Assembly (NCBI GenBank): GCA_031261285.1
Contig: JAISKM010000087.1
Location: forward strand, 4,516 to 68,515
Length of the DNA: 64,000 nucleotides
From: Candidatus Symbiothrix sp.
GTDB lineage: Bacteria; Bacteroidota; Bacteroidia; Bacteroidales; Azobacteroidaceae
Direction: 5' to 3'
Positions within the stretch are counted from its first letter, which is position 1, and each line of letters starts with the position of its first letter. The translations under genes were made by a program, and so were the position numbers. The notes under the pieces are model-generated. The model was given only the letters and a program-made list of their open reading frames with translations, was not told where the DNA came from and ran no database searches. Of this stretch, positions 1-60,640 are shown piece by piece.

Positions 1-401
1 ACATTAAAATGGCATAATTAAAAATACGAAATATTTAAAACTTTGATTTACAACGCTTTACATTCATAAAATAAATAGTGGATAGTCAAATATCCGTTTT
101 GTCAAAAATTTATATCATTAACTATACCGACTACTTTGCTCTACTCTGCAGGCAGTTATTCCTATTTTTCTATTTTTTTGCCCAAAAATTTGGCAGTCTC
201 AAAAAAAATGCCGTACTTTGCAACCTCTCTAAATCACAAAACTGTTGACAAAGCGTTGTCAATAGGTTTAGAGGGGCTTTTATCATATCTCGATTCAGAA
301 TGTGGAAATTCAATTAGTCGCGGGGTGTGAGCAAAAAGCAATCACGTTTTTTTCTGTATATAATTTTGAATTCTATGAATTCTATTTTATATGGGATTGA
401 C

Positions 402-480
402 GCGTGAGGTGACTATTGCTCTCTGCGACTTGGGCTTTCCACAGCCTTGAATCAAGAGAGCGTATAATAGTTCCTCACGC
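402..480 (+). ncRNA. Candidate structured RNA with C4-antisense-like architecture
   Basis: Nested stems gcgtgagg/cctcacgc, actatt/aatagt, gctctct/agagagc; inner segments gcgact and tttccaca are complementary to upstream agtcgc (316-321) and tgtggaaa (301-308); T-rich tract follows. Confidence 0.4.
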
Positions 481-543
481 TCTTTTCATTTTAAAAATTG
501 CCGAACTTGAGGGACAGGGAGGCGAAAAAAACATTATGTACAA

Positions 544-1446
544 ATGAAAACATTTAATTTCAGGAGATTGCGGAGCAAGTCCGCAATGACATTTGCGTTA
601 GCGATTGCCTGTGTTCTGGTAACCGGTAACTGTTCACCGGTAACTGCCCAAGTAGCCATTGGTGGGGATGGCACCGTAACACCCGGTGCGTTGTTAGATT
701 TATCACAAGCCACTAATGCCGGCGGCTTGTTGTTACCCCAAATTGTAAGTGCAGACACAGCTACTGCCGTATTGAAAAAGCCGGGGATGCTGGTTTACAA
801 CAAAACGGACGGAAAAATTTATGCCTACAACGGTTCTGCCTGGAGTGCCGGCGGTGGAGGTAGTGAGCCTTATCCCAACCCCTGGCCCAAAACTTGCGGC
901 GGTTATGTAAAGGGTGCGTCAGGTACTCGTTATCCGATTGGTAGTTATCCTTATGCCCAAAATGACTTGAAAAACTTGTGCTGGACGCTAACGAACCTTG
1001 TTGAGGCTGGCGCGTCTTATACTTCTTATTCAGGACAGGACAATTCTCGTGGATATTATTACAGTGCAGATGTGGCTTCCGATCCGGAAACCGATATTTG
1101 CACGCAAAAACTTGGTGGCACTTGGCGAATGCCTAACATTGACGACTGGGAATTGTTACAGATCGGTGCTGTTGACGTGAATTATAACGACCTACTAAAC
1201 AACTGGGTATATGATAGACCTGCGCTAGGAGGAAATGTGCAAGACTGGGCGGGTTCATATTCTAGCGGGACGCGATATAATGATTGGGGCGTTGCATCCT
1301 ATTATAGGGTACGCGATCGGACTGACTTGTGGCGTATTCCAATGGATAACCTTGCCGGTGCCAATCTTGCCGCTGCTGACGGGTTGCAAGCAGGTATTCA
1401 AATGAATCATTTTCACGGGAATATACGTTGTGTACGTGATTTGTGA
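544..1446 (+). CDS. Secreted FISUMP (Fibrobacter succinogenes major paralogous)-like domain protein
   Basis: Signal peptide, GALLDL...GGLLLP N-terminal motif, GYYY, WRMPNIDDW and terminal IRCVRD motifs. Confidence 0.7.
   Translation: MKTFNFRRLRSKSAMTFALAIACVLVTGNCSPVTAQVAIGGDGTVTPGALLDLSQATNAGGLLLPQIVSADTATAVLKKPGMLVYNKTDGKIYAYNGSAWSAGGGGSEPYPNPWPKTCGGYVKGASGTRYPIGSYPYAQNDLKNLCWTLTNLVEAGASYTSYSGQDNSRGYYYSADVASDPETDICTQKLGGTWRMPNIDDWELLQIGAVDVNYNDLLNNWVYDRPALGGNVQDWAGSYSSGTRYNDWGVASYYRVRDRTDLWRIPMDNLAGANLAAADGLQAGIQMNHFHGNIRCVRDL
563..590 (+). repeat. CGTC-type REP palindrome, in frame in signal peptide
   Basis: ggagattgcggagcaagtccgcaatgac (stem ttgcgga/tccgcaa) encodes RRLRSKSAMT. Confidence 0.8.
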
Positions 1447-1570
1447 GTTTAACCCAGAAAAATAAATCTTTATAATTACGATTTTTGCATTTTTTCAGAA
1501 AATAGTTGGTAGTTTCTAAAAAAATGCTTCACCGCGTGTTTGGCGATGACAATGGGGGGGTGATTAGTTT

Positions 1571-1696
1571 CATCCCGTTGGGGATGATACCAGCCCCCCC
1601 AACCCCCCTCAAGGGGGAAATGGTTGCATACCTCCGGCATGCGGGAATGGTCGACGAACATTGTTTTCTACCGAGCTACTATTCCTATCGGAATGC
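1571..1696. repeat. Intergenic nested REP cluster
   Basis: catcccgttggggatg, cccccccaacccccctcaaggggga and attcctatcggaatgc palindromes. Confidence 0.7.
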
Positions 1697-1734
1697 AGAG
1701 AACAAACAAATTAAATTTATAAAATTACAAACAA

Positions 1735-2125
1735 ATGAAAAAAATAAAATTAGTTATGGGATTGCGGGTCAAGCCCGCAATGACATCATCATCGCTGCGG
1801 ATCTGCTCCGCAATGACATCATCATTGGTGCGGATTACATCCGGGATGACACTGTTCGCGATAATCTGCTTGTTGGTAACTGGTAACTGTTCACTGGTAA
1901 GGCTATGCGTCGTTGACGGATGAAGAAAAAGCCGGCTGGCAAGGAACATCTTCTCTGGCAGGTTTTCGTCATAGCAGCGGCACGTGGGTAAGTTGGGGTT
2001 ACAGCGGTTGGTGGTGGAGTAGTTCGGCAGCAAATAAAGGCTTCACTAATGACGATGGCTCCTGGACTACCCCAGCGAACGCGACCGGCTCGTGGTTCAC
2101 GGTGCGCTGTGTGCGTGACATCTAA
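1735..2125 (+). pseudogene. FISUMP paralog remnant: leader fused out of frame to the C-terminal tip
   Basis: 1735-1900 resembles the 544 leader (LLVTGNCSLV vs VLVTGNCSPV); from 1901 another frame reads GYASLTDEEKAGWQG...GWWWSSS...FTVRCVRDI. Confidence 0.7.
1758..1850 (+). repeat. Three tandem CGTC-type REP units
   Basis: gggattgcgggtcaagcccgcaatgac / tgcggatctgctccgcaatgac / tgcggattacatccgggatgac. Confidence 0.8.
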
Positions 2126-2332
2126 AACATACTAAGAAGAAAGAAGACCCGCACGGGTTGTTTTTAAGTCGTTTCATTTTTTGCCTGGACGGGCGCTTCT
2201 TTCTTTTTTAAAAATTCCCGGAAACCTCGTTACTCGATTTTTTTCGTTTCGTTTCATTTTCAATTGGGTAATGAGGTGGATGGGAATTATTTTTATACGC
2301 TTATCCGCATATTCTAATAGCAACGCCTTGGG

Positions 2333-3115
2333 CTATTGGAGTGCCGACGCAATGGTCTCGCGCGACTGATCACTAAGCATTTGCAACCGGGCAATCACTT
2401 CCCGGCGATCGTTCCTCTCCCCGTCTGCTTCGAAGCCACCCATTTCCATGTTGGAGATGGGATGGGAGTGAGGTGGAATCGGCGGATGAATTGTCAGCTG
2501 CATCCGGTGCGGATGAATGCGGTAAGTGGTGCGCGGCATCACGTTATATGCGCCATTGATTGTGAGTGGCACAATCGGGAGTTGCAAATCGAGCGCCAGT
2601 TGGAAAGCCCCTTTCTTGAATTTAGTCATTTGACCGTCGTAAGTGCGCGAACCTTCCGGGAAAATGACCACCGAATTGCCGTTTTGCAATTTTTCCTCGG
2701 CGTCACGAAGCGTTTTGGCAATCGCTTTGGGTGAGGAGTTGTCCACAAAAATGAATCCTGCCGATTCACACGCTTTGCCTACAACCGGAATTTTGCGCAA
2801 ACTTTGCTTCATCATCCATTTGATTGGCATGTTTAAGTAGCCGAATATCAGCCAAATATCGAACGCACTTTGGTGATTCGACACAAAAATATAGGATTGT
2901 TTGGGGTCTAAATATTCGCGTCCCACCACTTTTACCGGACAAAAAGTAATCATACAAACTGCCATTGACCACCATTTGGCAGGAAAATAGCTGAAAAAGC
3001 GTTCGCCTCCAAAGGCGCATCCGACAATGGTTACTACCGCTGTCAACATCGTGATTGCCAACAGGATAGGAAACCAAATAAAAATTTCGTACAAAAGGAT
3101 AAGCGTCTGTTTCAT
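2333..3115 (-). CDS. plsC: 1-acyl-sn-glycerol-3-phosphate acyltransferase
   Basis: NHQSAFD (HX4D) and FPEGSRT motifs. Confidence 0.9.
   Translation of the reverse strand: MKQTLILLYEIFIWFPILLAITMLTAVVTIVGCAFGGERFFSYFPAKWWSMAVCMITFCPVKVVGREYLDPKQSYIFVSNHQSAFDIWLIFGYLNMPIKWMMKQSLRKIPVVGKACESAGFIFVDNSSPKAIAKTLRDAEEKLQNGNSVVIFPEGSRTYDGQMTKFKKGAFQLALDLQLPIVPLTINGAYNVMPRTTYRIHPHRMQLTIHPPIPPHSHPISNMEMGGFEADGERNDRREVIARLQMLSDQSRETIASALQ
2439..2473 (-). repeat. Degenerate C-rich/G-rich palindrome, in frame in plsC
   Basis: Minus strand cctcactcccatcccatctccaacatggaaatggg, encoding PHSHPISNMEMG; resembles the cccct...agggg elements in purL. Confidence 0.45.
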
Positions 3116-3126
3116 GTCTAATGGGA

Positions 3127-3134
3127 CAAAAGTA
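3127..3134 (-). promoter_or_regulatory. Bacteroidetes -7 promoter box for plsC
   Basis: TACTTTTG on minus strand (TAnnTTTG). Confidence 0.6.
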
Positions 3135-3177
3135 CATAATTTATTGCAAATGTAGTTATTTTTTCAAATATTTTTCG

Positions 3178-3185
3178 TATTTTTG
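3178..3185 (+). promoter_or_regulatory. Bacteroidetes -7 promoter box for purL
   Basis: TATTTTTG about 30 nt upstream of ATG. Confidence 0.6.
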
Positions 3186-3217
3186 CAGCGAATATTAGAT
3201 TAAAAAGCACATTTTAG

Positions 3218-6200
3218 ATGATTTTATTCTTTAAAACGCTGAATGATACTATTTTAGCAGTTGATGCGACGCAAAGATTAGAGTCGGCGGACTTGAAAAA
3301 ATTACTGTGGCTTTTTGGCGATGCCGAATTGCTGAAAGATGAAAGTGTAAAAGGCTTTTTGGTAGGTCCTCGTGCCGAAATGGTGACGCCGTGGAGTACG
3401 AATGCGGTAGAAATCACGCAAATCATGGGTATTGAAGGCATTGTGCGCATCGAGGAATTTCAGATAGTAGCCCCCTCTAACTCCCCCACAGGGGGAGAAC
3501 CGGAGAGAGAGATTGAGTATGATCCAATGTTGCAGCGTGTGTATAATGGTATTGGTCAGGATATTTTTACTATCAATAAAACTCCCGAAGCTATCATTGA
3601 GCTGACTGATATTCAGGCATATAACGAAAAAGAAGGCTTGGCTTTAAGTCCCGAAGAGGTAGATTATCTGAATGATGTGAGCCAAAAAATCGGTCGTTTG
3701 CTGACCGACAGCGAAGTGTTTGGATTTTCACAAGTCAATTCGGAACATTGCCGTCACAAGATTTTTGGTGGCACATTCAAAATCGACGGCGTGGAAAAAG
3801 AACTATCGCTGTTTGAGTTAATTAAAAAGACATCCAAAGAGCATCCTAATTTCCTGATTTCCGCCTACAAAGACAATGTCGCCTTCAATCAAGGTCCCAA
3901 AATAGAACAATTTGCACCGGCAAGTCCCGAAAAACCTGATTTTTTCCAAACGGAAACCATCGAATCGGTGATTTCGCTGAAAGCAGAAACGCACAATTTT
4001 CCAACCACGGTTGAGCCGTTTAACGGTGCTGCAACAGGCACGGGCGGCGAAATCCGCGACCGCTTAGGTGGAGGAAAAGCATCGCTTCCGATTGCGGGAA
4101 CGGCAGTTTACATGACAAGCCCCCCAACTCCCCTCAAGGGAGGCATGAAACCTCGCAAATGGTTGTATCAAACGCCCGAACAAATCCTGATCAAAGCTTC
4201 AAACGGAGCATCTGATTTTGGGAATAAGTTTGGACAACCTTTGATTTGTGGCTCTGTGTTGACGTTTGAACACGAAGAAAATGGGAAGCAATACGGCTAT
4301 GATAAGGTGATTATGCTCGCCGGAGGGGTTGGATACGCAAAGAAAAGCGATGCCTTGAAAGGCGAAGTAAAGCCGAACGAAGAAGTCGTCCTGCTGGGTG
4401 GCGATAATTACCGTATTGGCATGGGTGGAGGTGCCGTAAGTAGTGTGGACACAGGCAAATACACCAGCGGCATTGAACTGAATGCCGTCCAGCGTGCCAA
4501 TCCGGAGATGCAGAAACGCGTGGCTAACGTGATTCGCGCGCTCTCGGAATCAAAAAATAATCCGATTGTGTCAATTCACGACCATGGTGCCGGCGGACAC
4601 TTGAACTGCCTGTCGGAATTGGTCGAAACAACCGGAGGAAAAATCCAAATGGATGCGCTCCCGGTGGGCGACCCAACGCTGTCGGACAAAGAAATCATCG
4701 GCAACGAAAGTCAGGAACGCATGGGGATGGTGATGAAAAAAGATGCCGTCGACTTTGTGCAAAAAATTGCTGACCGTGAACGCTCGCCGATGTATGTCGT
4801 GGGCGAAACGACCAACGATGAACGCTTTGTGTTTGAACGCAAAAACGGACAAAATCCGCTGGATATGCAGTTGAGCGATTTCTTTGGAAAGCCGCCGCGC
4901 ACGATTATGGCGGATGTGACGGTGGAAGAAACATATAAATCCCCACAATACAATGGGATAGACGTAGGGGCGACCCTTGTGGTCGCCCACAACGGCGGCA
5001 ATCCCCTACAGACATACATTGAAAATGTATTGCAGTTGGAAGCCGTGGCGTGTAAGGATTGGTTGACAAACAAAGTTGACCGTTCGGTGACGGGCAAAGT
5101 GGCTCGTCAGCAATGTCAAGGCGAGATTCAGTTGCCGTTGAGCGATTTGGGTGCGGTGGCACTCGATTATCAAGGCAAAGCAGGTATCGCAACGAGTATT
5201 GGTCACGCGCCGCAGGTGGCGTTAGTGGATGCGGCTGCGGGTTCGGTGATGGCGATTGCGGAGGCGTTGACAAATTTGGTTTTTGCACCGTTGACGCACC
5301 AACTGAAAGGTGTGTCGTTGAGCGCGAATTGGATGTGGCCATGTCGCAACAAAGGGGAAGATGCTCGTCTGTATCAGGCCGTTGAGGCGTGTTCGGACTT
5401 TGCGATTGCGCTCGGCATCAACATTCCGACCGGCAAAGATTCGCTGTCGATGACGCAAAAATATAGCCTCTCCCCGACCCCCTCCACAAGAGGGGGAGTA
5501 GAGAAAGTAATGGCTCCCGGCACAGTAATTATTTCGGCTGCTGCGGAAGTGTCTGATATTAAAAAGATTGTATCTCCTGTGTGGGTCAATAATCCTGCAT
5601 CGGCTCTTTATTATATAGATTTCTCCTCTGATAATTTGCAGTTGGGCGGTTCGGCGTTTGCACAATCGCTGAATGCGGTGGGCGAAGTTGCCCCAACAGT
5701 GAAAGATGCTAATTATTTCAAAACGGCTTTCAACACGATTCAAAACCTGATTGAAAACGGTTTAGTGCTGGCAGGTCACGATATTTCGGCAGGCGGTTTG
5801 GTAACAGCCTTGCTGGAAATGACTTTTGCAAACGTGAAAGGCGGTTTGGATGTTAATTTGGAGGGCATCAACGAATCCGATTTAATAAAAATTTTGTTTG
5901 CAGAAAATCCGGGTGTATTGTTGCAAACAGCAGATATTCAGGCATTTGAGAAATTGCTAACAGACAACGGCATTGGTTTTGCAAGAATTGGTAAACAAAT
6001 TGACAAACGACAAATTACCCTCACAAAAGGCGCTGTGACGCAAGATTTGGACATTGATGCTTTGCGTGATGTTTGGTATAAATCCTCCTATTTGTTAGAT
6101 CGCAAACAATCGGGCGAAGCAAAAGCCGAAGAACGGTTTGACAATTACAAAAAACAACCGTTAGCGTTTGATTTCACAAATTTGCAGGGGATTGCGGATC

Positions 6201-7075
6201 AAGTCCGCAATGACGATACCGTCGTAGGGGCGAACCCTTGCGGTCGCCCAATTCTTCCATCCATCCGCCCCATTCTTTCATCCACCCGCCCTATTCATCC
6301 ATCCGCCCACCCAATTAAAGCGGCAATCATCCGCGAAAAAGGCACGAATGGCGAACGCGAAATGGCATATTCGCTGTACCTTGCAGGATTTGACGTAAAA
6401 GATGTGCACACAACGGATTTGGTTACAGGACGTGAAACATTGGAGGATGTGAATTTCATTGTCTTCTGCGGCGGATTTTCTAACTCTGACGTACTTGGTT
6501 CGGCGAAAGGCTGGGCGGGTGCGTTGCTTTACAATGAAAAGGCAAAATCGGCATTGGATAAATTTTATGCGCGTCCCGACACATTGAGTTTGGGCGTTTG
6601 CAACGGCTGTCAGTTGATGGTCGAACTGAATTTGTTGCAGTTGAAAGGCAATCATGAGTCCAAAACGCTGCCAAAAATGTTACACAACGATTCACATAAA
6701 TTCGAGTCGGAATTTGTGTCGGTAGCGATCCCGGAAAATAAATCAGTCATGTTTGGCAGTTTGTCAGGCTCAAAATTAGGTATCTGGGTGGCTCACGGCG
6801 AAGGAAAATTCAGTTTGCCGTTGGCGGAAAATCAATACAATGTGGTGGCGAAGTACGCTTATCATAGTTATCCTGCCAATCCGAATGGCTCGGATTATGA
6901 TGTCGCAGCGTTGGCATCGCCGGACGGTCGCCATTTAGCAATTATGCCGCACTTGGAACGGTCGATTTTCCCGTGGCAATGGGCGCATTATCCGGCAGAG
7001 CGCAAAGACGATAAAGTTACTCCATGGATTGAAGCATTCACGAATGCACGCCAATGGATTGAAAAACAACCGTAG
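3218..7075 (+). CDS. purL: Phosphoribosylformylglycinamidine synthase (large, single-chain)
   Basis: NSEHCRHKIF, KAETHNFPT, IHDHGAGG, GVCNGCQ and MPHLER motifs; 1285 aa. Confidence 0.97.
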   Translation: MILFFKTLNDTILAVDATQRLESADLKKLLWLFGDAELLKDESVKGFLVGPRAEMVTPWSTNAVEITQIMGIEGIVRIEEFQIVAPSNSPTGGEPEREIEYDPMLQRVYNGIGQDIFTINKTPEAIIELTDIQAYNEKEGLALSPEEVDYLNDVSQKIGRLLTDSEVFGFSQVNSEHCRHKIFGGTFKIDGVEKELSLFELIKKTSKEHPNFLISAYKDNVAFNQGPKIEQFAPASPEKPDFFQTETIESVISLKAETHNFPTTVEPFNGAATGTGGEIRDRLGGGKASLPIAGTAVYMTSPPTPLKGGMKPRKWLYQTPEQILIKASNGASDFGNKFGQPLICGSVLTFEHEENGKQYGYDKVIMLAGGVGYAKKSDALKGEVKPNEEVVLLGGDNYRIGMGGGAVSSVDTGKYTSGIELNAVQRANPEMQKRVANVIRALSESKNNPIVSIHDHGAGGHLNCLSELVETTGGKIQMDALPVGDPTLSDKEIIGNESQERMGMVMKKDAVDFVQKIADRERSPMYVVGETTNDERFVFERKNGQNPLDMQLSDFFGKPPRTIMADVTVEETYKSPQYNGIDVGATLVVAHNGGNPLQTYIENVLQLEAVACKDWLTNKVDRSVTGKVARQQCQGEIQLPLSDLGAVALDYQGKAGIATSIGHAPQVALVDAAAGSVMAIAEALTNLVFAPLTHQLKGVSLSANWMWPCRNKGEDARLYQAVEACSDFAIALGINIPTGKDSLSMTQKYSLSPTPSTRGGVEKVMAPGTVIISAAAEVSDIKKIVSPVWVNNPASALYYIDFSSDNLQLGGSAFAQSLNAVGEVAPTVKDANYFKTAFNTIQNLIENGLVLAGHDISAGGLVTALLEMTFANVKGGLDVNLEGINESDLIKILFAENPGVLLQTADIQAFEKLLTDNGIGFARIGKQIDKRQITLTKGAVTQDLDIDALRDVWYKSSYLLDRKQSGEAKAEERFDNYKKQPLAFDFTNLQGIADQVRNDDTVVGANPCGRPILPSIRPILSSTRPIHPSAHPIKAAIIREKGTNGEREMAYSLYLAGFDVKDVHTTDLVTGRETLEDVNFIVFCGGFSNSDVLGSAKGWAGALLYNEKAKSALDKFYARPDTLSLGVCNGCQLMVELNLLQLKGNHESKTLPKMLHNDSHKFESEFVSVAIPENKSVMFGSLSGSKLGIWVAHGEGKFSLPLAENQYNVVAKYAYHSYPANPNGSDYDVAALASPDGRHLAIMPHLERSIFPWQWAHYPAERKDDKVTPWIEAFTNARQWIEKQP
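3471..3502 (+). repeat. In-frame palindrome in purL (1)
   Basis: ccccctctaactcccccacagggggagaacc, stem ctccccc/gggggag; encodes PSNSPTGGEP. Confidence 0.8.
4120..4144 (+). repeat. In-frame palindrome in purL (2)
   Basis: ccccccaactcccctcaagggaggc; encodes PPTPLKGG; similar to intergenic copy at 1594-1618. Confidence 0.75.
4964..4988 (+). repeat. In-frame GTAG-type REP in purL (3)
   Basis: gtaggggcgacccttgtggtcgccc, stem gggcgacc/ggtcgccc; encodes VGATLVVAH. Confidence 0.85.
5467..5498 (+). repeat. In-frame palindrome in purL (4)
   Basis: cctctccccgaccccctccacaagagggggag; encodes LSPTPSTRGG. Confidence 0.75.
6187..6312 (+). repeat. Composite in-frame insert in purL (5,6): CGTC REP + GTAG REP + 3x21-bp tandem repeat
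   Basis: ggggattgcggatcaagtccgcaatgac (6187-6214), gtaggggcgaacccttgcggtcgccc (6224-6249), then ILPSIRP/ILSSTRP/IHPSAHP. Confidence 0.85.
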
Positions 7076-7096
7076 GGGCAACCCTTGTGATTGCCC
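7072..7096 (+). repeat. GTAG-type REP supplying the purL stop codon
   Basis: gtaggggcaacccttgtgattgccc; TAG at 7073-7075. Confidence 0.8.
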
Positions 7097-7103
7097 GTTA
7101 AAT

Positions 7104-7197
7104 AACCAAATCCATATTCCTGTTTAAGGCGTATTGATTTGGTGTTAAAAAATAGATGATACATGGGGACACCCCTCATGTAGCGAAGCTTTTGTGT
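7104..7197 (+). promoter_or_regulatory. Polysaccharide-operon leader with ops/JUMPstart-like element
   Basis: Hairpin catggggacacccctcatg followed by gtagcgaagcttttgtgt; near-duplicate at 18023-18114. Confidence 0.6.
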
Positions 7198-7225
7198 TTA
7201 ACGCACGCGGCGTTATAGAATAACA

Positions 7226-8374
7226 ATGAATATTCAACTGGTTGACCTGAAAGGTCAATATACAAAAATACAGCAAGAAATTGATGCTGCGGTACTGCAA
7301 GTAGTTCGCAGCGGGTACTATATTAATGGTGCCGAAGTGGATACGTTTGCTGAAGCGTTGCGAAATTACACGGGTGCGAAACACGTGATTCCGTGCAGCA
7401 ACGGGACGGATGCGTTGCAGATGGCTCTGATGGCACTCGAATTGAAACCGGGCGATGAGGTGATTGTGCCGGCTTTTACTTATGTGGCGCCGGCGGAAGC
7501 GATTGGATTATTGGGGCTTATGCCCGTGATGGTAGATGTGGATCCCGATTCGTTCAATGTGACGGCGAAAAACATTGAAAAAGGCATTTCTGCCAAGACA
7601 AAAGCGATTATTGCCGTGCATTTGTTCGGTCAAAGTTGCGACATGGCTTCGATTATGGCGTTGGCGAAAAGGAATCATTTATATGTCATTGAAGACAATG
7701 CGCAGTCGATAGGGGCTTGGTACACCATTCCTCCTCCGCCTCTCTATGACGATTGGAAAGATAAAAAACAGACAGGGACGCTTGGTCATATTGGCTGTAC
7801 GTCGTTTTTCCCAACGAAAAATTTGGGTTGCTATGGCGATGGCGGTGCGATGATGACCAACGGCGATGATTTGGCACAGAAACTAACAATGATTGCCAAT
7901 CACGGACAAAAGCAGAAATATCATCATGAAGTATTAGGCTGCAATTCGCGTTTGGACACTTTGCAAGCGGCTATTTTGAATGTGAAATTAAAACATTTGG
8001 ACGATTATACGGCTGCACGGCAGAAAGCGGCACAAATTTATACGCAAGGCTTGAAAGGCGTTGAAGGGATCGTGACACCGAAAGAGATGTCGTTTTCGAC
8101 CCATGTCTATCATCAATACACGATTAAAGTAGAAGGCGGCAAACGCGATGCGTTGAAACACTATTTAGCTGAACAGGGCATTCCAACGATGATTTATTAT
8201 CCATCGCCGTTGCAAGAGCAGCCTGCTTTTAAGTACATTGCACGTGCCGGCGAACCGCTGACGGTTGCCAAAGAATTGTCGCAGTCCGTTCTTTCGTTGC
8301 CAATGCATACGGAATTGACGGCGGAGCAGCAAACATACATCATTGATAAAATAAAAAAATACCAAGTAGGCTGA
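7226..8374 (+). CDS. wbpE: DegT/DnrJ/EryC1/StrS aminotransferase, WbpE-like
   Basis: EDNAQS, SFFPTKNLGCYGDGG and NSRLDTLQAA motifs; adjacent to wbpD/wbpB-like genes. Confidence 0.85.
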   Translation: MNIQLVDLKGQYTKIQQEIDAAVLQVVRSGYYINGAEVDTFAEALRNYTGAKHVIPCSNGTDALQMALMALELKPGDEVIVPAFTYVAPAEAIGLLGLMPVMVDVDPDSFNVTAKNIEKGISAKTKAIIAVHLFGQSCDMASIMALAKRNHLYVIEDNAQSIGAWYTIPPPPLYDDWKDKKQTGTLGHIGCTSFFPTKNLGCYGDGGAMMTNGDDLAQKLTMIANHGQKQKYHHEVLGCNSRLDTLQAAILNVKLKHLDDYTAARQKAAQIYTQGLKGVEGIVTPKEMSFSTHVYHQYTIKVEGGKRDALKHYLAEQGIPTMIYYPSPLQEQPAFKYIARAGEPLTVAKELSQSVLSLPMHTELTAEQQTYIIDKIKKYQVG

Positions 8375-8501
8375 AAGCCTTACATAACCTAGCCCAACGG
8401 CAACGCCTTGGGTTTTTGTTATTGGTAGAATTATTAATTGGGGGATTGCGGATTCCTGAATCAAGTTCAGGACAGGCACGGCTTCGCCGTCCCGCAATGA
8501 C
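8366..8501. repeat. Intergenic REP cluster including a nested element
   Basis: gtaggctgaaagcct (contains the wbpE stop), agcccaacggcaacgccttgggt, and gggattgcgg[..tcctgaatcaagttcagga..]cccgcaatgac. Confidence 0.75.
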
Positions 8502-8509
8502 AAAAAAAT

Positions 8510-9067
8510 ATGAATTATTTCTCACATGAAACAGCAGTTGTAGACCCCGATTGCACGATAGGTGACGGCACCAAGATATGGCATTTCTCACATTTGATGG
8601 GTGGATGTACGTTGGGCAAAAATTGTGTGATTGCGCAAAATGTGTATATTGCGCCGCAGGTGGTGCTTGGAAATAATGTCAAGGTGCAAAATAATGTGTC
8701 GCTTTACACGGGTGTGACATGCGACGATGATGTGTTTTTGGGTCCGTCGTGTGTGTTTACGAATGTGATTAATCCGCGTGCAGCGATTTGTCGCAAAGAT
8801 GAATTTCAACAAACGCATGTGGGACGCGGGGCGACTATTGGTGCCAATGCCACGATTTTGTGTGGTATCACGATTGGCAACTATGCGTTCATCGGTGCAG
8901 GCGCGGTAGTGACAAAAAATGTACCTGACTATGCCTTAGTAATGGGTAATCCGGCACGTCAAACAGGTTGGATGAACGAAGAAGGCTACAAAACGGAGGG
9001 GATTCCCGCCTGCGCGGGAATGACAGCCATACAATCCTGCGCGGGAATGACAGGTCACAATGAATAG
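8510..9067 (+). CDS. wbpD: Hexapeptide N-acetyltransferase, WbpD/WlbB-like
   Basis: [18 protein letters not shown] and [13 protein letters not shown] motifs; C-terminus is REP-derived. Confidence 0.88.
8998..9051 (+). repeat. CGTC-type REP (ATTCCC-N8-GGGAAT) plus partial copy forming the wbpD C-terminus
   Basis: ggggattcccgcctgcgcgggaatgac ... cctgcgcgggaatgac encodes GIPACAGMT...CAGMT. Confidence 0.85.
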
Positions 9068-10109
9068 GATAAAATTCGCCGTAGTCGGCTACGGACACAT
9101 TGGCAAACGTCATGCAGAGATGATTTCGCGCAATTCCGATGCCGAATTGGTTGGTTTGTGTGACATTGACCCGTTGGCAATAACCCGTAGGGGCGAACCC
9201 TTGCGGTCGCCCAATCCCTCGCAGTTGCCCAATTACCAATTATCGGCAATCCCGTTTCATTCATCAATTGATGAGTTGTTGCAAAAAACGGATGCAGATG
9301 TTGTAAATATTTGTACGCCAAACGGGTTTCATGCTGCGTATGCCGTCAAAGCCTTAGAAGCAGGCAAGCACGTGGTGATTGAAAAACCGATGGCACTCAC
9401 GACGCTCGATGCCGAACAGGTGATTGAGGCATCAAAAAAAGTCAATAAACACATTTTTTGCGTGATGCAAAACCGCTATTCTCCGCCTTCGGTGTGGATC
9501 AAAGATTTAGTAGCATCAGGCAAATTGGGACAGATATATATGGTGCAGCTGAATTGCTATTGGAATCGCGATGCGCGCTATTACAAACAAGGCAATTGGC
9601 ACGGCACAGCCGATTTGGATGGCGGCACGTTGTTTACGCAGTTTTCGCACTTTATTGACATATTATATTGGTTGTTTGGTGATATTACGAATATTCAAAC
9701 TCGGTTTAACGATTTCAATCATAGCGATTTAACGGCATTTGAGGATTCCGGCATTGTTAATTTTGACTTCGTCAACGGCGGAATGGGTTGTTTGAATTAT
9801 TCGACGGCTGTGTGGGATAAAAATTTGGAAAGCAGTCTGACGCTAATTGCCGAAAATGGCAGCGTCAAAATTGGCGGACAATACATGAATGAAGTGAAAC
9901 AGTGTCATGTCAAAGATTACGAAATGCCAAATTTGGCGCCAACCAATCCGGGCAATGATTATGGTGCCTACAAAGGTTCGGCGCAAAATCATCACTTTGT
10001 GATTGAGAACGTGATCAATGTTTTGAATGGGAAAGCAGAAATTACAGCGACAGCCCAAGAGGGTTTGAAAGTGGTGGAGATAATAGAAAATATATACAAA
10101 TTAAAATAA
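9060..10109 (+). CDS. wbpB: Gfo/Idh/MocA oxidoreductase, WbpB/WlbA-like
   Basis: [24 protein letters not shown] and [14 protein letters not shown] motifs. Confidence 0.85.
9187..9212 (+). repeat. In-frame GTAG-type REP in wbpB
   Basis: Identical to 6224-6249 but read as RRGEPLRSP. Confidence 0.88.
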
Positions 10110-10124
10110 AATAATACACAATAT

Positions 10125-12512
10125 ATGAAGAAAATCATTTTATTTTCATTATGCTTTATGTTTTTTGTGACGGCGGGATTGGCTCAGATGTCGGATTCGC
10201 AGGTCTTGAATTATGTGAAGCAGGAACATACGAAAGGGACTTCGCAAGATCAGATTGCGACGGATTTAGTGAAGCGAGGTGTGACGAAAGCACAACTGGA
10301 GCGCATCAATAAGACTGTGAATGGCGCCGGAGAGGCTACCACAACTGCAAACACCGGTACATTCAACCTTGATCAGTCGCGGGAGCGTACTCAAATGCCC
10401 AATGAAACGGGTCTGCTTCTTTCGGGCACGATGGATGTTCCGACAAGTGGTGGCAAGCAAGTGTTTGGACGTACTATTTTTAATGCACAAAATTTGACGT
10501 TTAGTCCGAATGCGAATATTCCAACGCCTGCCAATTACCGTTTGGGTCCTGGTGACGAGGTGATTATTGATATTTGGGGTGTTTCTCAAGCATCCTTTCG
10601 GCAGACGATTTCTCCGGAAGGCCGGATTACGGTGGATCGTCTCGGACCGCTTTATTTGAATGGCATGACCATTCAGGAGGCCAATAACTATGTGCAACGG
10701 AAATTTGCTGAGGTCTATGGCGGTCTTGGTGAGGGCGGCGATTCGCAGATTCAGTTGACGTTGGGACAGATTCGCACGATACAAATTCAAGTGATGGGCG
10801 AAGTGGTGCGTCCGGGTACGTATGCTATCTCGTCGTTGGCATCTATTTTTCATGCTTTGTATATTGCCGGTGGCGTCAATGATATTGGGTCGTTGCGTGC
10901 GATTACCCTGGTGCGAAATGGCAAACCGCTACGCACGTTGGATGTGTATAAATACCTGTTGGAAGGCAAGTTAAATGAGGATATTCGCTTGACGGATAAC
11001 GATGTGGTGATGGTGCCGCCGTATATTTCATTGGTGGACATCGAGGGCAATGTGAAGCGCCCGATGTATTACGAAATGAAAGACAATGAAACGGTGGCGG
11101 ATTTGTTGATGTTTGCAGGCGGTTTTGCCGGCAATGCTTATGCCGACAAAGTGCGGTTAGCACGGAGTGGAGGGGCTGAAAATCAGTTATTTACACTCCT
11201 AAGTGATCAGTATAAAACATTCAAATTGGCAGATAAAGATGTCGTGACGGTAAGTCAGGGTTTGGATGAATATAAAAACAGGGTCGAAATTATAGGAGCC
11301 GTTTATAGAGAGGGCTATTATGAAATAGGCAACGACATCCAGACCGTTAAACAGTTGATTGCAGCAGCCGATGGCGTGCGTGGGGATGCGTTTTTGAATC
11401 GTGCTATTTTGACACGCGAAAAGGCGGATTTGACAACGGAAATTCTTCCGATAGATGTCCAAGGCTTGTTGAATGGTACTGTTTCGGATATTGTCTTGCA
11501 CAAAAATGATGCGTTGTTTATTCCTTCTGCCAACGCATTGAAGCGGCAAGGCGACTTTGTTGTGTTTGGAGCTGTGACGCGTCCGGGTGGATATAAATAT
11601 GCCGATAATACCACTTTGGAAGATTTGTTGGTGCAAGCCGGCGGTTTGTTGGAGTCGGCGTCTATGGTGCGTGTGGATATTGCACGTCGCGTTATTGATC
11701 CGCGTAGTATGACGACTACGAACACGTTGGCTCAAACGTTTTCGTTTGGCATCAAAGATGGTTTAGTGGTCGATGGCACATCCGGTTTTATTTTGCAACC
11801 TTACGACCAAGTGTATGTGCGTCAAAGTCCGGGTTATCATGTGCAGCAAAATGTGCATATAGATGGAGAAGTCTTATTTCCTGGCACTTATGTTTTGAAT
11901 AAAAAGACCGAACGTCTGTCGGATATTGTGAAGCGAGCAGGCAATTTGACGCCGGATGCGTATGCCAAAAGTGCCCGTTTGATTCGTCAACGAAGTTCGG
12001 ATGAGAATTTTCGAGCACAGCAAGCATTTAAGTTGGCTCAAAAAAGTGTAAATGATTCGATTGATGTAGCAGAATTGGATCTTGCTCCAACTTTTACGAT
12101 TGGTATAGAATTGGATAAGGCGGTGCAAAATCCGGGATCGGATTATGATGTCGTCTTAAAAGAAGGCGACCGTTTGGTGATTCCCGAATATGACAACATA
12201 GTGAAGATTGATGGCGCGGTCATGTATCCGAACACGGTAGTGTATAAGGCGGGACAGAAAGCAAGCTATTACATCAATCAGGCAGGCGGTTATAGTGATA
12301 ATGCCAAGAAAAACAAAGGATATGTCATTTATATGAATGGTACGGTGGCGAAAATCAAAGGTTCGGACAAAAATTTGATTCAGCCGGGTAGTGTCATTAT
12401 TGTGCCGACGAAAGAGGAAAAATCCAAAATGTCGACGGGTGAAATAATCAGCATAAGCTCTTCTGTGGCATCTATGGCGACGGTGATTGCTTTACTCATT
12501 AACTCTTTTTAA
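10125..12512 (+). CDS. wza: SLBB-domain polysaccharide export protein (Wza/KpsD-like)
   Basis: Signal peptide, YRLGPGDEVIIDIWG, repeated SLBB G-x-V-x-x-PG motifs. Confidence 0.9.
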   Translation: MKKIILFSLCFMFFVTAGLAQMSDSQVLNYVKQEHTKGTSQDQIATDLVKRGVTKAQLERINKTVNGAGEATTTANTGTFNLDQSRERTQMPNETGLLLSGTMDVPTSGGKQVFGRTIFNAQNLTFSPNANIPTPANYRLGPGDEVIIDIWGVSQASFRQTISPEGRITVDRLGPLYLNGMTIQEANNYVQRKFAEVYGGLGEGGDSQIQLTLGQIRTIQIQVMGEVVRPGTYAISSLASIFHALYIAGGVNDIGSLRAITLVRNGKPLRTLDVYKYLLEGKLNEDIRLTDNDVVMVPPYISLVDIEGNVKRPMYYEMKDNETVADLLMFAGGFAGNAYADKVRLARSGGAENQLFTLLSDQYKTFKLADKDVVTVSQGLDEYKNRVEIIGAVYREGYYEIGNDIQTVKQLIAAADGVRGDAFLNRAILTREKADLTTEILPIDVQGLLNGTVSDIVLHKNDALFIPSANALKRQGDFVVFGAVTRPGGYKYADNTTLEDLLVQAGGLLESASMVRVDIARRVIDPRSMTTTNTLAQTFSFGIKDGLVVDGTSGFILQPYDQVYVRQSPGYHVQQNVHIDGEVLFPGTYVLNKKTERLSDIVKRAGNLTPDAYAKSARLIRQRSSDENFRAQQAFKLAQKSVNDSIDVAELDLAPTFTIGIELDKAVQNPGSDYDVVLKEGDRLVIPEYDNIVKIDGAVMYPNTVVYKAGQKASYYINQAGGYSDNAKKNKGYVIYMNGTVAKIKGSDKNLIQPGSVIIVPTKEEKSKMSTGEIISISSSVASMATVIALLINSF

Positions 12513-13577: not shown

Positions 13578-14798
13578 ATGCCTCACTCGCAAGAAATAAA
13601 AATTGCAGTCATCGGATTAGGCTATGTCGGACTGCCTTTAGCACGCTTATTTGCAATCCAATACTCCGTTGTGGGTTTTGATATTAATGAAAAACGCGTG
13701 GACGCGTTGGCAACGAATCGTCATTGCGTTGCGGGCTGCGACCCGCAATCTTACCCGCAATCCCCTGATGGCTTGTCTTATTCCGGCAACATAGACCACA
13801 TTAAGGACTGTAATTATTACATCATCACCGTCCCAACACCTGTAGACAAAGATAATCGTCCCGATTTAACAATTTTGTTGAACGCCACTCAAACCGTTGG
13901 TCAGGTGCTCAAAAAAGGCGATACTGTGATTTATGAATCGACCGTATATCCGGGCTGCACGGAAGAAGAATGCGTGCCTGTGTTAGAAAAAACGTCGGGG
14001 TTAAAATTCAATGTGGATTTTTTTGTGGGCTACAGTCCGGAGCGCATCAATCCGGGCGACAGAGAGCACACGGTGGAGCGGATAAAAAAAGTAACGTCAG
14101 GATCCACGCCGGAAACAGCCGAGCAGGTGGATGCACTTTATTCTTCTGTGATTTTGGCAGGTACGCATTTAGCGCCGAGTATTCGCGTGGCTGAAGCAAG
14201 TAAAGTGATTGAAAATGCTCAACGCGACATCAATATTGCGTTTGTCAATGAGGCGAAAAAGATTTTTGACACACTGGGGATTGATACCAACGCTGTGTTG
14301 GAAGCAGCCGGCACGAAATGGAATTTTATGCCTTTCAAGCCGGGATTAGTTGGCGGTTATTGCATTGGTGCAGCGACTTATTATCTGGCTCATAAGGCTC
14401 AAAACAGCGATTATTATCCCGAAATTATTTTGGCGGGTCGACAAATGAACGAAAGTATGGGTGCCTATTTTGCTTCGGAAGTGGTAAAAAAAATGATTCG
14501 GCAAGGTATTCCGGTCAAAGGGGCAAACATCCTTGTTTTGGGCATCACTTTCAAAGAAAACAATCCCGATGTGCGTAATAGTAAGGTCGTAGATGTGATT
14601 AAGGCGTTGCAAGAGTATGGTATGAACATTACGATTTACGATCCAATCGCAAATCCTGCAAACGTGCAGCGCGAATATGGCTTGGTGAGTCTGTCCGAAA
14701 TGCCCACAGAAAAATTTGATGCGGTAGTGAAAACTGTGGCACACCAAGCGCTTGAGAATATACCGTTGAATAGTGAGGTAGTTTATTTTATCAAATAA
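13578..14798 (+). CDS. wbpA: Nucleotide-sugar (UDP-GlcNAc) 6-dehydrogenase, WbpA/VipA-like, with divergent motifs
   Basis: GLGYVGLP, YSPERINPGD and KVIENAQRDINIA; catalytic region reads GGYCIGAATY. Confidence 0.8.
   Translation: MPHSQEIKIAVIGLGYVGLPLARLFAIQYSVVGFDINEKRVDALATNRHCVAGCDPQSYPQSPDGLSYSGNIDHIKDCNYYIITVPTPVDKDNRPDLTILLNATQTVGQVLKKGDTVIYESTVYPGCTEEECVPVLEKTSGLKFNVDFFVGYSPERINPGDREHTVERIKKVTSGSTPETAEQVDALYSSVILAGTHLAPSIRVAEASKVIENAQRDINIAFVNEAKKIFDTLGIDTNAVLEAAGTKWNFMPFKPGLVGGYCIGAATYYLAHKAQNSDYYPEIILAGRQMNESMGAYFASEVVKKMIRQGIPVKGANILVLGITFKENNPDVRNSKVVDVIKALQEYGMNITIYDPIANPANVQREYGLVSLSEMPTEKFDAVVKTVAHQALENIPLNSEVVYFIK
13720..13765 (-). repeat. In-frame CGTC-type REP in wbpA (opposite orientation)
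   Basis: gtcattgcgttgcgggctgcgacccgcaatcttacccgcaatcccc; encodes RHCVAGCDPQSYPQSP. Confidence 0.8.
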
Positions 14799-43590: not shown

Positions 43591-44934
43591 GTGATGCAAA
43601 CACCCGGAGTTTATAGCGTTGAAAAGAACGCATTCCCTAATTCTGTTGTAGAAGTGGCAACCGCCGTTCCTGCCTTCATCGGTTATACCGAAAAAGCCCT
43701 CAATGGGGACAAATCCTTGCTCAATAAGCCTTTCCGAATTACTTCCATAGCGGAATTTCGTGCCTGTTTTGGCGAAGCGCCTCGACCTAAATTTAGCTTC
43801 GAAGCGTTGGCAGATGGAATTTATGTCCTCAAACGGGTCGATTCTTTTACACTGTATTACAACATGTTGCTGTTTTATGCGAACGGTGGTGGTCCCTGCT
43901 ACATTGTTTCTGTAGGCGACTATACGAGCGATGACATTGACAAGGCAAAATTGCAAGCCGGTATTGACACACTTGTAAAAGAGCAGGAGCCGACTTTATT
44001 AGTGATACCCGAAGCGGTGAACCTCAAGGCAAGTAAGGATTGTTACGCTTTACAACGAGCGATGTTAGCGCATTGCGGAAGTGTCATGAAAAATCGTTTC
44101 GCCATATTGGATATTTACGATGGAGCAAAAGATAGCAAAGGTCATCAGGGAGATGTGATAAACGCATTTCGCGAACAGGTAGGAAATGAGTTTCTTGATT
44201 ATGGTGCAGCTTATTATCCCTGGATCAATACTTCTATCGTGCAGGAAAAGGAACTCAGTTTTCAGAATTTGGATATTGTCACGCAGAATGGTTTGTTGAC
44301 GGATGAATTAAGTCCGCTTTATGCTCGAATTATCGGAGAGATGCGTTTTATGCTCAATTTGCTTCCCATATCAGCCGCCATGGCAGGTGTTTACGCCTTG
44401 ACTGACAGTACAAAAGGCGTATGGAAAGCTCCAACTAATGTCGGTATTGCGAAGGCTGTTAGTCCGGCGGTCAGTATTTTGCACGAAGCGCAAGAAGAGT
44501 TGAATGTGTCTGTCAGCGGCAAATCTGTCAATGTCATCCGTTCTTTTATCAGTGAAGGAATAATAATTGGGGGAGCGCGCACTTTGGACGGCAACTCCTT
44601 GAATTGGAGGTATATAAATGTACGCCGCACGATGATTATGTTGGAAGAATCGATTAAGAACGCTTTGAAAGCATACGTTTTTGAGCCGAATGTTGCCACT
44701 ACATGGGTAAACGTGAAAGGTATGATTTCCAACTTTCTTAATGGAATATGGAAGCGTGGAGGGTTAGCAGGTGATAAGCCTGACAATGCGTATCGCGTAC
44801 ACGTGGGGTTGGGTGAAACAATGACATCCACAGACTATCTCGAAGGCATCATGCGTATTACTGTCTTGGTGGCACTTGTTCGTCCAGCAGAATTTATCGA
44901 GATTACCTTCCAACAACAAATGCAGAAAAGTTAA
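43591..44934 (+). CDS. Contractile tail sheath protein (eCIS Afp2/3-like), orphan
   Basis: TPGVYSVEKNAFPNSVVEVATAVPAFIGYTE, GAAYYPW, WRYINVRR and RPAEFIEITFQQ motifs. Confidence 0.88.
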   Translation: MMQTPGVYSVEKNAFPNSVVEVATAVPAFIGYTEKALNGDKSLLNKPFRITSIAEFRACFGEAPRPKFSFEALADGIYVLKRVDSFTLYYNMLLFYANGGGPCYIVSVGDYTSDDIDKAKLQAGIDTLVKEQEPTLLVIPEAVNLKASKDCYALQRAMLAHCGSVMKNRFAILDIYDGAKDSKGHQGDVINAFREQVGNEFLDYGAAYYPWINTSIVQEKELSFQNLDIVTQNGLLTDELSPLYARIIGEMRFMLNLLPISAAMAGVYALTDSTKGVWKAPTNVGIAKAVSPAVSILHEAQEELNVSVSGKSVNVIRSFISEGIIIGGARTLDGNSLNWRYINVRRTMIMLEESIKNALKAYVFEPNVATTWVNVKGMISNFLNGIWKRGGLAGDKPDNAYRVHVGLGETMTSTDYLEGIMRITVLVALVRPAEFIEITFQQQMQKS

Positions 44935-49143: not shown

Positions 49144-50160
49144 ATGGAAAATAATTTATTGCAATATTTATTAGTAACAATCATCCTCTTCGCAGGGATG
49201 CTCCTGTACTTCAAACTTGCTGATAAATACAACATCATCGACAAGCCCAACGAACGGAGTTCGCACAACTATATCACGTTGCGCGGCGGCGGCATCGTGT
49301 TTTGGCTGGCAGGCGTGCTTTATGCCGCATTTAACTTGCCCGAAAGCCTCTATTTTCTCATTGGGCTGACGCTCATTTGCGGTGTCAGTTTTTGGGACGA
49401 TGTGTCGTCGTTGCCTAATAAAGTCCGCATAGTGATTCATTTTCTGTCTATCTCGCTGGTATTCTATGGGTTAGGACTGTTTGTATTGTTGCCTTGGTGG
49501 CTGATAGTGATCGCCTACATCTTTTTCGTCGGCATCATGAATGCCTACAATTTTATGGATGGTATCAATGGCATGATCGGATTGTACAGTTTGGTGGTGT
49601 TAATCGCGCTCCAGTATGTTAATTATCAGGAGGCATTTCATTGCGGGCACCCACAAGGGATGCCCCTACGCCTGCAATCCCCTGCCATTAATCCTGATTT
49701 CATTAATTACGCCATCCTCGCTTGCATCGTCTTTCTCTTTTTCAATTTCCGAAAGCGTGCCAAATGTTTTGCCGGCGATATAGGTGCTTTGGGTCTCGCT
49801 TTTTGGATGGTTACTTTGTTGATACAGTTGATGTTAGCAACCAATTCTGTCATTTGGATTTTGTTTTTGGCAGTTTACGGCGTCGACACTGTTTGCACGA
49901 TTTTACATCGTTTATACTTGAAACAGAATATTTTTCAAGCGCACCGTTTGCATTTTTATCAGATATTAGTCAACGAACGGAAACAGTCGCACCTGACAGT
50001 GGCTGCGGGTTATGCAGGCGTTCAGTTACTCATTTGTGGTATCGTCATTTATGCGTATGAATGCGGTAACGAAATCGAACAATGGTGCATTGGAGCAGCG
50101 ATTATTATGGTATTATTGCTTGTTTATTTATTGAAATTCAAAAAAACAGATGAAAAATAG
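49144..50160 (+). CDS. MraY/WecA-family undecaprenyl-phosphate sugar-1-phosphate transferase
   Basis: DKPNERSSH, FWDD, NAYNFMDGING and FAGDIG motifs. Confidence 0.9.
   Translation: MENNLLQYLLVTIILFAGMLLYFKLADKYNIIDKPNERSSHNYITLRGGGIVFWLAGVLYAAFNLPESLYFLIGLTLICGVSFWDDVSSLPNKVRIVIHFLSISLVFYGLGLFVLLPWWLIVIAYIFFVGIMNAYNFMDGINGMIGLYSLVVLIALQYVNYQEAFHCGHPQGMPLRLQSPAINPDFINYAILACIVFLFFNFRKRAKCFAGDIGALGLAFWMVTLLIQLMLATNSVIWILFLAVYGVDTVCTILHRLYLKQNIFQAHRLHFYQILVNERKQSHLTVAAGYAGVQLLICGIVIYAYECGNEIEQWCIGAAIIMVLLLVYLLKFKKTDEK
49643..49669 (-). repeat. In-frame GTAG-type REP in the WecA-like gene (opposite orientation)
   Basis: Reverse complement gtaggggcatcccttgtgggtgcccgc; encodes CGHPQGMPL. Confidence 0.82.
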
Positions 50161-60373: not shown

Positions 60374-60640
60374 CCCGTAGGGCTCACATTTTACACCCGT
60401 GAGTTTTAAACACGGGATTGATTATGGCACAAAAAGCCTGTAGGGCTGACATTTTTGTAGTCGTGGGTGTAAACCCACGGTAATGATTATAGCGAAAAGG
60501 TGTTTTGTTTGGAAAATTAGGTAGAAATGAGGTTTCAAATAAGCAACAAGGTTTAAAGCTCTTGTCAAAACATGAACGAATAAAAAAATAACCCCTAAAT
60601 CCCCTGAAGGGGACTTAAGCCCCCTAGGGGGAATGGGGGA
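60372..60640. repeat. Intergenic REP cluster
   Basis: agcccgtagggct, cccgtgagttttaaacacggg, agcctgtagggct, cgtgggtgtaaacccacg, cccctaaatcccctgaaggggac, cccctaggggg. Confidence 0.75.

Follow-up and report, generated by a model that had tools for sequence, protein, structure and literature searches.

Most prokaryotic repetitive extragenic palindromes (REPs) have been sorted into two superfamilies, tagged GTAG and CGTC (Di Nocera et al., 2013, PMC3733652). GTAG REPs, and the REPINs, are mobilised by REP-associated tyrosine transposases, or RAYTs (Nunvar, 2010; Bertels & Rainey, 2011, PMC3116915; Di Nocera, 2013, PMC3733652), the RAYT binding the single-stranded hairpin and cutting at GTAG (literature summarised in PMC3733652); for CGTC REPs no dedicated transposase was found, and no RAYT was seen flanked by CGTC units (PMC3733652). 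In several species REPs lie wholly within open reading frames (ORFs), at no more than two insertion sites per ORF in the published survey, and GTAG termini 'often provide' the TAG stop codon of flanking ORFs; the survey does not list purL as a target, its genome set does not extend to Bacteroidales, and the families it gives for the Bacteroidetes include named CGTC repeats and no GTAG ones (PMC3733652). Here we describe the purL gene of a Candidatus Symbiothrix relative, on a contig stretch of 64,000 nucleotides (the window, JAISKM010000087.1), in which six palindromic elements of three families lie in frame and a seventh sits at the stop codon. We hold it likely, at roughly 85%, that these elements are non-autonomous REP-class palindromic repeats, which have colonised this genome including its coding DNA and are transcribed and translated there as loop and linker residues. 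In-frame residence and stop donation by REPs are already described; purL is a dense further case in a new lineage, and with three families spread over five sites of a single gene it lies at the high end.

In-frame palindromic repeats are likewise carried by Rickettsia genes that stay functional, in the form of the Rickettsia palindromic element RPE-1. Units of RPE-1 measure about 100-150 bp and mostly occur once per gene. Their inserts are reportedly surface-located, and are said to have been put forward as material from which proteins could evolve (Ogata et al., 2000, 2002; Claverie & Ogata, 2003). The purL units differ in being 25-45 bp long and in representing three families at five sites of a single gene, and their host, which we take to be a protist ectosymbiont, is unlike the obligate intracellular alphaproteobacterium. 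A comparison with the Rickettsia elements had been drawn in the initial annotation, made from the DNA alone, and it is apt: RPE-4 and RPE-6 are CGTC REPs, as is dRS3 of Neisseria, the likeness to the Rickettsia elements being one of description and resting on the statement on RPE-4 and RPE-6 in PMC3733652.

The host gene occupies positions 3218-7075 (+) as a single unbroken frame of 1285 amino acids. Its product is recognised by NCBIfam NF003672 (phosphoribosylformylglycinamidine synthase) at 1412 bits and matches the human and Salmonella PurL structures at E <= 1e-186; the gene is intact, with the glutaminase residues C1128, H1245 and E1247 in invariant columns of an alignment of 120 homologs. 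The closest public proteins come from termite-gut Bacteroidales, with BLASTP identities of 83% to PurL of Candidatus Symbiothrix dinenymphae (P0004; 86% over ungapped aligned columns) and 83-86% to three others (P0002, P0003, P0005); the source of the window is a relative of that species, and a termite gut metagenome run contains 94% of the locus words. The purL DNA of four close orthologs (L001-L004, 82-95% nucleotide identity) was codon-aligned with that of the window. Identity to these four is 0.86-0.90 at the amino acid level and 0.62-0.64 at third codon positions; purL is therefore under purifying selection. Since PurL of relatives usually has 1226-1231 residues (about 1229), the window protein is some 55 residues overlong. 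Near its N-terminus the PurL of L001 carries a private 11-residue insert, NADNNAEATRD (L001:4530-4570; P0002 residues 40-52), which matches no repeat family.

The elements fall by sequence into three families. F2 is a GTAG-tagged REP with the consensus CGTAGGGGCGA(A)CCCTTG(T/C)GGTCGCCC, present in purL at 4964, 6224 and 7072 and beyond it at 9187 and 49645-49669 (-); its stem, GGGCGACC-CTTGT-GGTCGCCC, is a perfect 8 bp. It is like the described GTAG REPs in its unpaired GTAG (directly 5' of the stem in all five window copies), its GC-rich 8-bp stem, its 5-nt loop, its multiple copies, its donation of TAG and its intra-ORF copies. The described repeats are predominantly extragenic and often arranged as inverted dimers, whereas four of the five window copies lie in ORFs or over a stop codon and all are singletons; as PMC3733652 admits intragenic members, this does not exclude F2 from the superfamily. 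F1 is a CGTC/TGTC-tagged REP, GGGATTGCGGNTCAAGNCCGCAATGAC, found in purL at 6188 and beyond it at 564, 1758, 1794-1851, 8441, 8999, 13719 (-) and 49636 (-), with the stem ATTGCGGA-CTTGA-TCCGCAAT except at 8441, 13719 and 49636, where the loops are enlarged. By definition the CGTC tag may be TGTC, the stem has 8-9 bp and starts with AT, the loop has 4-5 nt and the tail 3 nt (PMC3733652). Read on its other strand, F1 has the arrangement C/TGTC-ATTGCGGN-loop5-NCCGCAAT-CCC and agrees in its tag, with CGTC at 6215 and 13719 and TGTC at 591, 1785, 1818, 8502 and 9025, in its 8-bp stem starting with AT and in its 5-nt loop; relative to the tail consensus CCA, its own tail (CCC or CCCC in most copies, CTCC at 564) has the same position and is at least one base off. 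It further shares with CGTC REPs the in-frame intragenic copies and the lack of a known dedicated transposase, and differs from them in those copies whose loop is long through insertion or encloses an F2 (8441, 49636). Head-to-head dimers, the predominant form of CGTC REPs, occur for F1 in L002 (2416/2488), L003 (1384/1456, 1960/2032) and L126, while the window, from a termite-gut Bacteroidales host, holds singletons and one tandem array. F3 is an untagged palindrome of a C-run and a G-run, AGCCCCC..CCCCC-loop-GGGGG.., present in purL at 3469, 4118 and 5465 and beyond it at 1592 and 60592.

The positions given for the seven elements in the initial annotation stand on a reading of the DNA together with an inverted-repeat scan, as does its count of at least three sequence families; its description of them as hairpins applies to most. 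Folding exceeds that of shuffled sequences at 4955-5011 (z = -3.0), 5465-5505 (z = -2.2) and 6186-6216 (z = -3.4); the elements at 4118 (z = -0.7) and 7072 (z = -0.6) fold no better than shuffles and are assigned to their families on sequence rather than on the strength of a hairpin. Shuffles predict zero F1 and zero F2 matches for the window, where five F2 copies are observed, and GC-rich hairpins are fivefold commoner than in shuffles (44 against 8.8). For locating copies, detectors of tagged hairpins took the place of a k=10 repeat census, which was too noisy, and of a loose F1 pattern, whose hits were mostly false. In the source metagenome, de Bruijn unitigs terminate at the elements, and the summed word depth rises from about 20 on the flanks to about 1300 at the F1 copy of purL, a 60-fold spike; contigs of two DNA runs gave repeat breakpoints alone and no clean presence/absence joints.

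At site 1 (3469-3512, +) an F3 element with the stem CTCCCCC/GGGGGAG (AGCCCCCTCTAACTCCCCC-ACA-GGGGGAG...) encodes PSNSPTGGEPEREIEY and takes the place of ancestral GKDAPF, for a net gain of 30 nt or 10 residues; the segment has 22 residues in the window and 12 in 111 of the 120 homologs. L003 and L004 retain the state common to distant homologs, GTT GCA GGC AAA GAC GCA CCG TTT GAC; L002 has a shorter copy of the element and L001 two units, bounded by AGCCCCC...GGGGGCT. At site 2 (4118-4144, +) the F3 element, a close match, judged by eye, for the intergenic F3 at 1592-1621, has a weak 5-bp stem and encodes SPPTPLKGG, the native loop SYPRTExxRxWExA being replaced. Between fixed anchors this span measures 17 residues in five Symbiothrix-clade proteins against 22 in 106 of the 120 homologs; the element therefore substitutes for a longer native loop, as the initial annotation had suspected. 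It is common to all five close relatives in the codon alignment, and because these offer no element-free allele, site 2 is the oldest and least certain of the insertions.

Site 3 (4955-5009, +) is a composite F2, encoding GIDVGATLVVAHNGGNPL. Its GTAG (4964-4967) and hairpin (4968-4988), with a perfect 8-bp stem GGGCGACC/GGTCGCCC, are nested in an outer inverted repeat of GGGAT/ATCCC and GTAGGGG/CCCCTAC, an architecture resembling that of the F2 inside an F1 frame at 49636-49682. The 39-nt block bearing F2 is missing from L002-L004, and L001 has an F1-type unit (EIAGRSPQRND) in its place. At site 4 (5465-5505, +) an F3 element with the stem CCCCCTC/GAGGGGG forms an exact insert of 30 nt (5465-5494, SLSPTPSTRG) between TAT and GGx; L002-L004 read AAA TAT GGC, shorter by exactly 30 nt, and the site is element-free in 116 of the 120 homologs.

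The densest cluster lies in the linker joining the synthetase and glutaminase domains. There an F1 copy (6188-6214, +) with the stem ATTGCGGA/TCCGCAAT, reading CGTC-ATTGCGGA-CTTGA-TCCGCAAT-CCC on the reverse strand, encodes GIADQVRND, and is followed by an F2 copy with its GTAG hairpin (6222-6249, +; VGANPCGRP), of which the 30 nt CGTAGGGGCGAACCCTTGCGGTCGCCCAAT (6222-6251) are identical to 9185-9214. Within the 3' arm of this F2 begins an in-frame tandem array of 21 nt x 3.4 (6245-6316, +; ILPSIRP/ILSSTRP/IHPSAHP), which makes up more than half of the linker's excess length. The linkers of L002 and L004 are REP-free; that of L003 has an F1 copy (GIAGQARND) followed by another GTAG element, and that of L001 has F3-like units. 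The purL linker of L002 also shows an in-frame heptanucleotide run, CAATTAC x 4.7 (L002:12880-12960), and a similar CCAATTACCAATTA follows the F2 copy in an oxidoreductase gene of the window (about 9225-9245). At the 3' end of purL, finally, a third F2 with its GTAG hairpin (7070-7096, +) contains the stop codon in its tag: the window reads CAA CCG TAG-GGGCAACCC..., with TAG at 7073-7075, whereas the element-free L004 reads CAA TAG, one codon earlier; L001-L003 end in TGA, followed by an F1 copy. That a REP supplies this TAG, as had been proposed, is thus borne out.

Element-free alleles among close orthologs at sites 1, 3, 4 and the linker, four of the five positions, plus the stop, mean that the extra residues are insertions. 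Together with the copies between genes and in other genes, these alleles bear out the proposal of the initial annotation, which had named an alignment with Bacteroidales PurL as the check, that the elements are mobile repeats and not coincidences of codon usage. Across the 120 homologs the modal lengths of the five segments are 12, 22, 18, 8 and 32-33 residues, and in the window 22, 17, 32, 18 and 57; all five are length-variable positions, both among these homologs and against the PurL sequences of the PDB. The same loops are occupied independently in other lineages by other families, with an F1-like unit at site 1 in P0064 and an F1 head-to-head dimer in the linker of P0100. The further suggestion that the elements mark insertion-tolerant loops therefore holds as far as the alignment goes. 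An AlphaFold2 model of residues 1-1040, built with 45 close homologs, shows the inserts at sites 1, 3, 4 and the linker as coil with a predicted local distance difference test score (pLDDT) below 50, and as this model is poor overall (mean pLDDT 54), structural support is weak and the mapping is by alignment.

These observations suggest how the elements could have come to reside in the gene. They would sit at five surface-loop and linker positions, translated straight through as 9-24 residues per site. Gene copies would survive only where the net length change is a multiple of three, where the GC-rich sequence is free of stops in the frame used (four or five of its six frames being open), and where the host loop tolerates the added residues. 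A resident copy could then act as a nucleus for change, by the nesting of a second family, by partial deletion with loss of native residues (4118, site 1), by slippage into tandem arrays (6245-6316) and by erosion of the hairpin; where a copy arrived at the 3' end, it would donate the TAG of its GTAG as a stop. We infer that the inserts are neutral, and the copies now seen in genes are probably what filtering and remodelling have left of many events.

Several points weigh against this account. Several sites are replacements and not clean insertions, and target-site duplications are not seen at the junctions of the purL elements; the chemistry of insertion therefore cannot be read from the junctions. 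The 30-nt F3 insert of site 4 is present in the window, in L001 and in the distant, non-sister L125, and absent from L002-L004, a distribution that would need recurrent insertion, loss, or transfer of alleles by recombination. Between the linker F1 of the window (GIADQVRND) and that of L003 (GIAGQARND) a compensatory pair differs, which plain neutral decay does not predict. Translation of the elements is deduced from frame and constraint. F3 is without a tag or a known mechanism of mobilisation, and no published description of it was found. Lastly, no RAYT, Y1 or other transposase was found among the roughly 51 ORFs of the window.

For F2 a mobilising enzyme is suggested from further afield. 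A locus of another phylum (L024, 3700-5400) holds a RAYT (NF047646, 80.5 bits at a cutoff of 80; Pfam Y1_Tnp, 34 bits) within an array of 13 F2-type hairpins, and by analogy with this array and with published REP/RAYT biochemistry the mobiliser of F2 is presumably a RAYT-type HUH tyrosine transposase. The same array also holds two to three CGTC-type hairpins (GGATTCCTGC..GCAGGAATGAC), which hints that the transposase-less CGTC family may borrow a RAYT. Among the F2 loci examined for REPtrons, L024 alone had a RAYT; F2-flanked ORFs considered as REPtrons in L048, L082, L077, L032 and L120 are ordinary genes (by eye NrdR-like and radical-SAM-like; flavin reductase, hexapeptide transferase) or have no Pfam match.

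A first alternative retains the REP nature of the elements and supposes that insertion is directed to pre-existing hairpins or to certain single-stranded sites, with REP alleles spreading from lineage to lineage by short recombination tracts. This we think possible and on balance unlikely. It fits the alternation of the three families at the same purL sites in different lineages, the near-identical 30-nt insert that non-sister genomes share at a single site (at site 4 of L125, whose PurL, P0008, is 75% identical, 27 of 30 nt agree by eye), the nesting of F2 in F1 frames, the seeding of in-frame arrays by REP arms, and the CGTC-type hairpins within the RAYT/GTAG array of L024. If it is true, intragenic REP nests are self-reinforcing engines of loop and linker evolution. 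The site-1 element of L002 lies on a short L001-like patch, though L002 is 93-95% identical to L003 and L004, and for this pattern, for that of site 4 and for the compensatory pair, recurrent insertion at preferred sites, short-tract recombination and conversion are all possible.

Decidedly less probable is that the hairpins are selected for an action in cis on purL DNA or mRNA, such as ribosome pausing at domain boundaries, stabilisation of the mRNA or binding of gyrase. Several copies do have perfect 7-8-bp stems, the inter-domain linker is precisely where the elements cluster most densely, intragenic copies are enriched in purL relative to other genes, and a compensatory pair separates the linker F1 of the window from that of L003. 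However, close orthologs work with element-free alleles, old copies are stemless (4118 in the window, site 4 in L001), and families interchange at one site. Both compensatory variants, moreover, exist as separate copies elsewhere (564, 1758), so that re-insertion or conversion explains the pair. The enrichment itself, on which the initial annotation had remarked as an unusual density, is clear for the window as a whole, where purL holds six of the ten intragenic sites in 7% of the coding DNA (binomial P = 1.9e-5), and falls to P = 0.01 when limited to the first 17 kb, which is of higher GC; the low-GC capsule locus that fills much of the window (GC 0.32 at 20-32 kb) may be younger than the rest.

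That the mature protein lacks the elements, because they are cut out of the transcript or because the ribosome bypasses them, is very improbable. GC-rich bypassing elements are known in some yeast mitochondria. Every intragenic copy examined, however, is in frame and free of stops (six in purL, four elsewhere in the window, and 11 metagenome loci), which would be needless if the elements were removed; the junctions share no conserved splice-like signals, and no Rfam family matches within window positions 1-10500. We give as little credence to the proposal that these are native hypervariable loops or template-switch palindromes, whose likeness to intergenic repeats is convergent. The five sites are indeed length-variable in PurL generally, but this proposal is already contradicted by identical copies at unrelated loci: the 30 nt of 6222-6251 are found again, unchanged, in a second gene (9185-9214), identical F1 sequences occur in genomes with a PurL identity of only 72%, and elements are missing from orthologs at 93-95% nucleotide identity to carriers. 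Chimeric joining at short repeats in the metagenome assembly would account for the unitig breaks of the source run and is otherwise scarcely conceivable, as the joins give a full-length, colinear, in-frame PurL, independent assemblies (L001, L002, L003, L125) have like inserts at the same sites, and the elements are shorter than a typical read.

The three families also occur between genes and within four other genes of the window, and the intergenic relatives cited in the initial annotation near 1594, 8440 and 60592 are all present. Between genes there are an F3 at 1592-1621 (+), an F1 array at 1758-1851 (+; one intact and two degenerate units, 33-nt period), an F1 frame with two inner hairpins at 8441-8502 (+), a position at which L002 and L003 have plain F1 copies, and an F3-like double hairpin at 60592-60640 (+). 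Within genes, two F1-variant units (GGGATTCCCGC..GCGGGAATGAC) lie in frame at 8999-9052 (+) in a hexapeptide-transferase ORF; over 8999-9067 such units replace the stop codon of the ortholog and add about 17 residues, and the extended ORF overlaps the following gene at its start. An F2 with an 18-nt duplication lies in frame at 9185-9233 (+) in a GFO/IDH/MocA oxidoreductase, which is 15 residues longer than in L002 and L003, the 18-nt x 2 array at 9198-9233 adjoining the F2 copy at 9187. This duplication and the array at 6245-6316 each start in the 3' arm (TCGCCCAAT) of an F2 copy, the two copies being identical, and this suggests that a REP arm seeds slippage into tandem arrays. An F1 copy is in frame in a UDP-sugar dehydrogenase (13719-13765, -; RHCVAGCDPQSYPQSP), and a family-4 glycosyltransferase carries, likewise in reading frame, an F1 frame with an F2 in its loop (49636-49682, -; FHCGHPQGMPLRLQSP). 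The F1 copy at 564-590 (+; tail CTCC) lies at the 5' end of ORF 544-1446; the ATG at 586, in its GCAATGAC arm, opens a lipoprotein-like signal peptide (MTFALAIACVLVTGNCS) and is a likely start, and the element might thus supply a start codon, as F2 supplies the stop of purL.

A count of copies in coding against intergenic DNA, proposed in the initial annotation, was made for F1 in 120 metagenome loci: of 133 exact copies, 11 (8%) are situated deep within long ORFs and another 19 close to ORF ends, and coding DNA is therefore strongly depleted. The 11 ORFs look by eye like real enzymes, and the six that were scanned with Pfam all belong to known enzyme families (FtsX/MacB permease, MutY-type glycosylase, ketoacyl synthases, YgiQ-type radical SAM protein, epimerase). 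In L002 (2416-2511) and L003 (1960-2055) an F1 head-to-head dimer of about 96 nt lies in a gene resembling the small subunit of glutamate synthase (Fer4_20/Pyr_redox_2); it is a further in-frame REP insert in a housekeeping gene.

The F2 type extends far beyond these hosts. A search of genome contigs with the F2 pattern gave at least 120 loci (L005-L124) from more than 10 phyla, and near-identical sequence of this type, a point of difference from the described GTAG REPs, recurs across them among the matches listed; in the 120 loci listed there are at least 172 copies, whose stems covary (GA/TC, GG/CC, AA/TT). The motif, GTAGGGGC-NN-CCCTTG-N-G-NNN-GCCC, is near-unchanged across metagenome-assembled genomes, with a conserved loop and covarying stem pairs, and among the matches listed these genomes include Chloroflexota, Acidobacteriota, Cyanobacteria, Bacteroidota, Clostridia, Gamma- and Deltaproteobacteria, Latescibacterota and others; it is striking to find one REP sequence type across so many phyla. 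In L048 (2354-2429, 3719-3788) units of the motif are paired head to head downstream of genes. Placed independently, GTAG and CGTC hairpins would come within 100 nt of each other 4-5 times less often than they do; since joint confinement to intergenic DNA could explain this proximity, we do not claim a coupling of the two.

In the remainder of the window, positions 17300-52700 form a capsule or exopolysaccharide locus with Wza/Wzz, two UDP-sugar dehydrogenases, epimerases, glycosyltransferases and Wzy. Interspersed are toxin-antitoxin-like genes, among them three HipA_C ORFs (18769, 46247, 48151), a separate ORF with a HipA N-terminal domain (47825), a helix-turn-helix gene, AbiEii, HepT, a protein with a Fic-like C-terminal domain and a YhcG nuclease. 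A 447-residue ORF at 43591-44934 has a phage tail-sheath C-terminal domain (PF17482, E = 4e-9) and stands alone in the polysaccharide locus.

The purL gene of this Symbiothrix relative constitutes a natural experiment in how much foreign sequence a large multidomain enzyme absorbs, and where: five permissive PurL sites have been occupied repeatedly, and among close relatives occupied alleles stand beside element-free ones. The known range of GTAG- and CGTC-type REPs whose intragenic copies are presumably translated is thereby extended to termite-gut Bacteroidales, and in a domain linker REP arms appear to have seeded tandem repeats that keep the frame. Annotators of Bacteroidales proteins should read peptides such as GIAGQARND, HCGLDPQSP, VGATLVVA and SPPxPLKGG as marks of REP insertion, not as conserved motifs.

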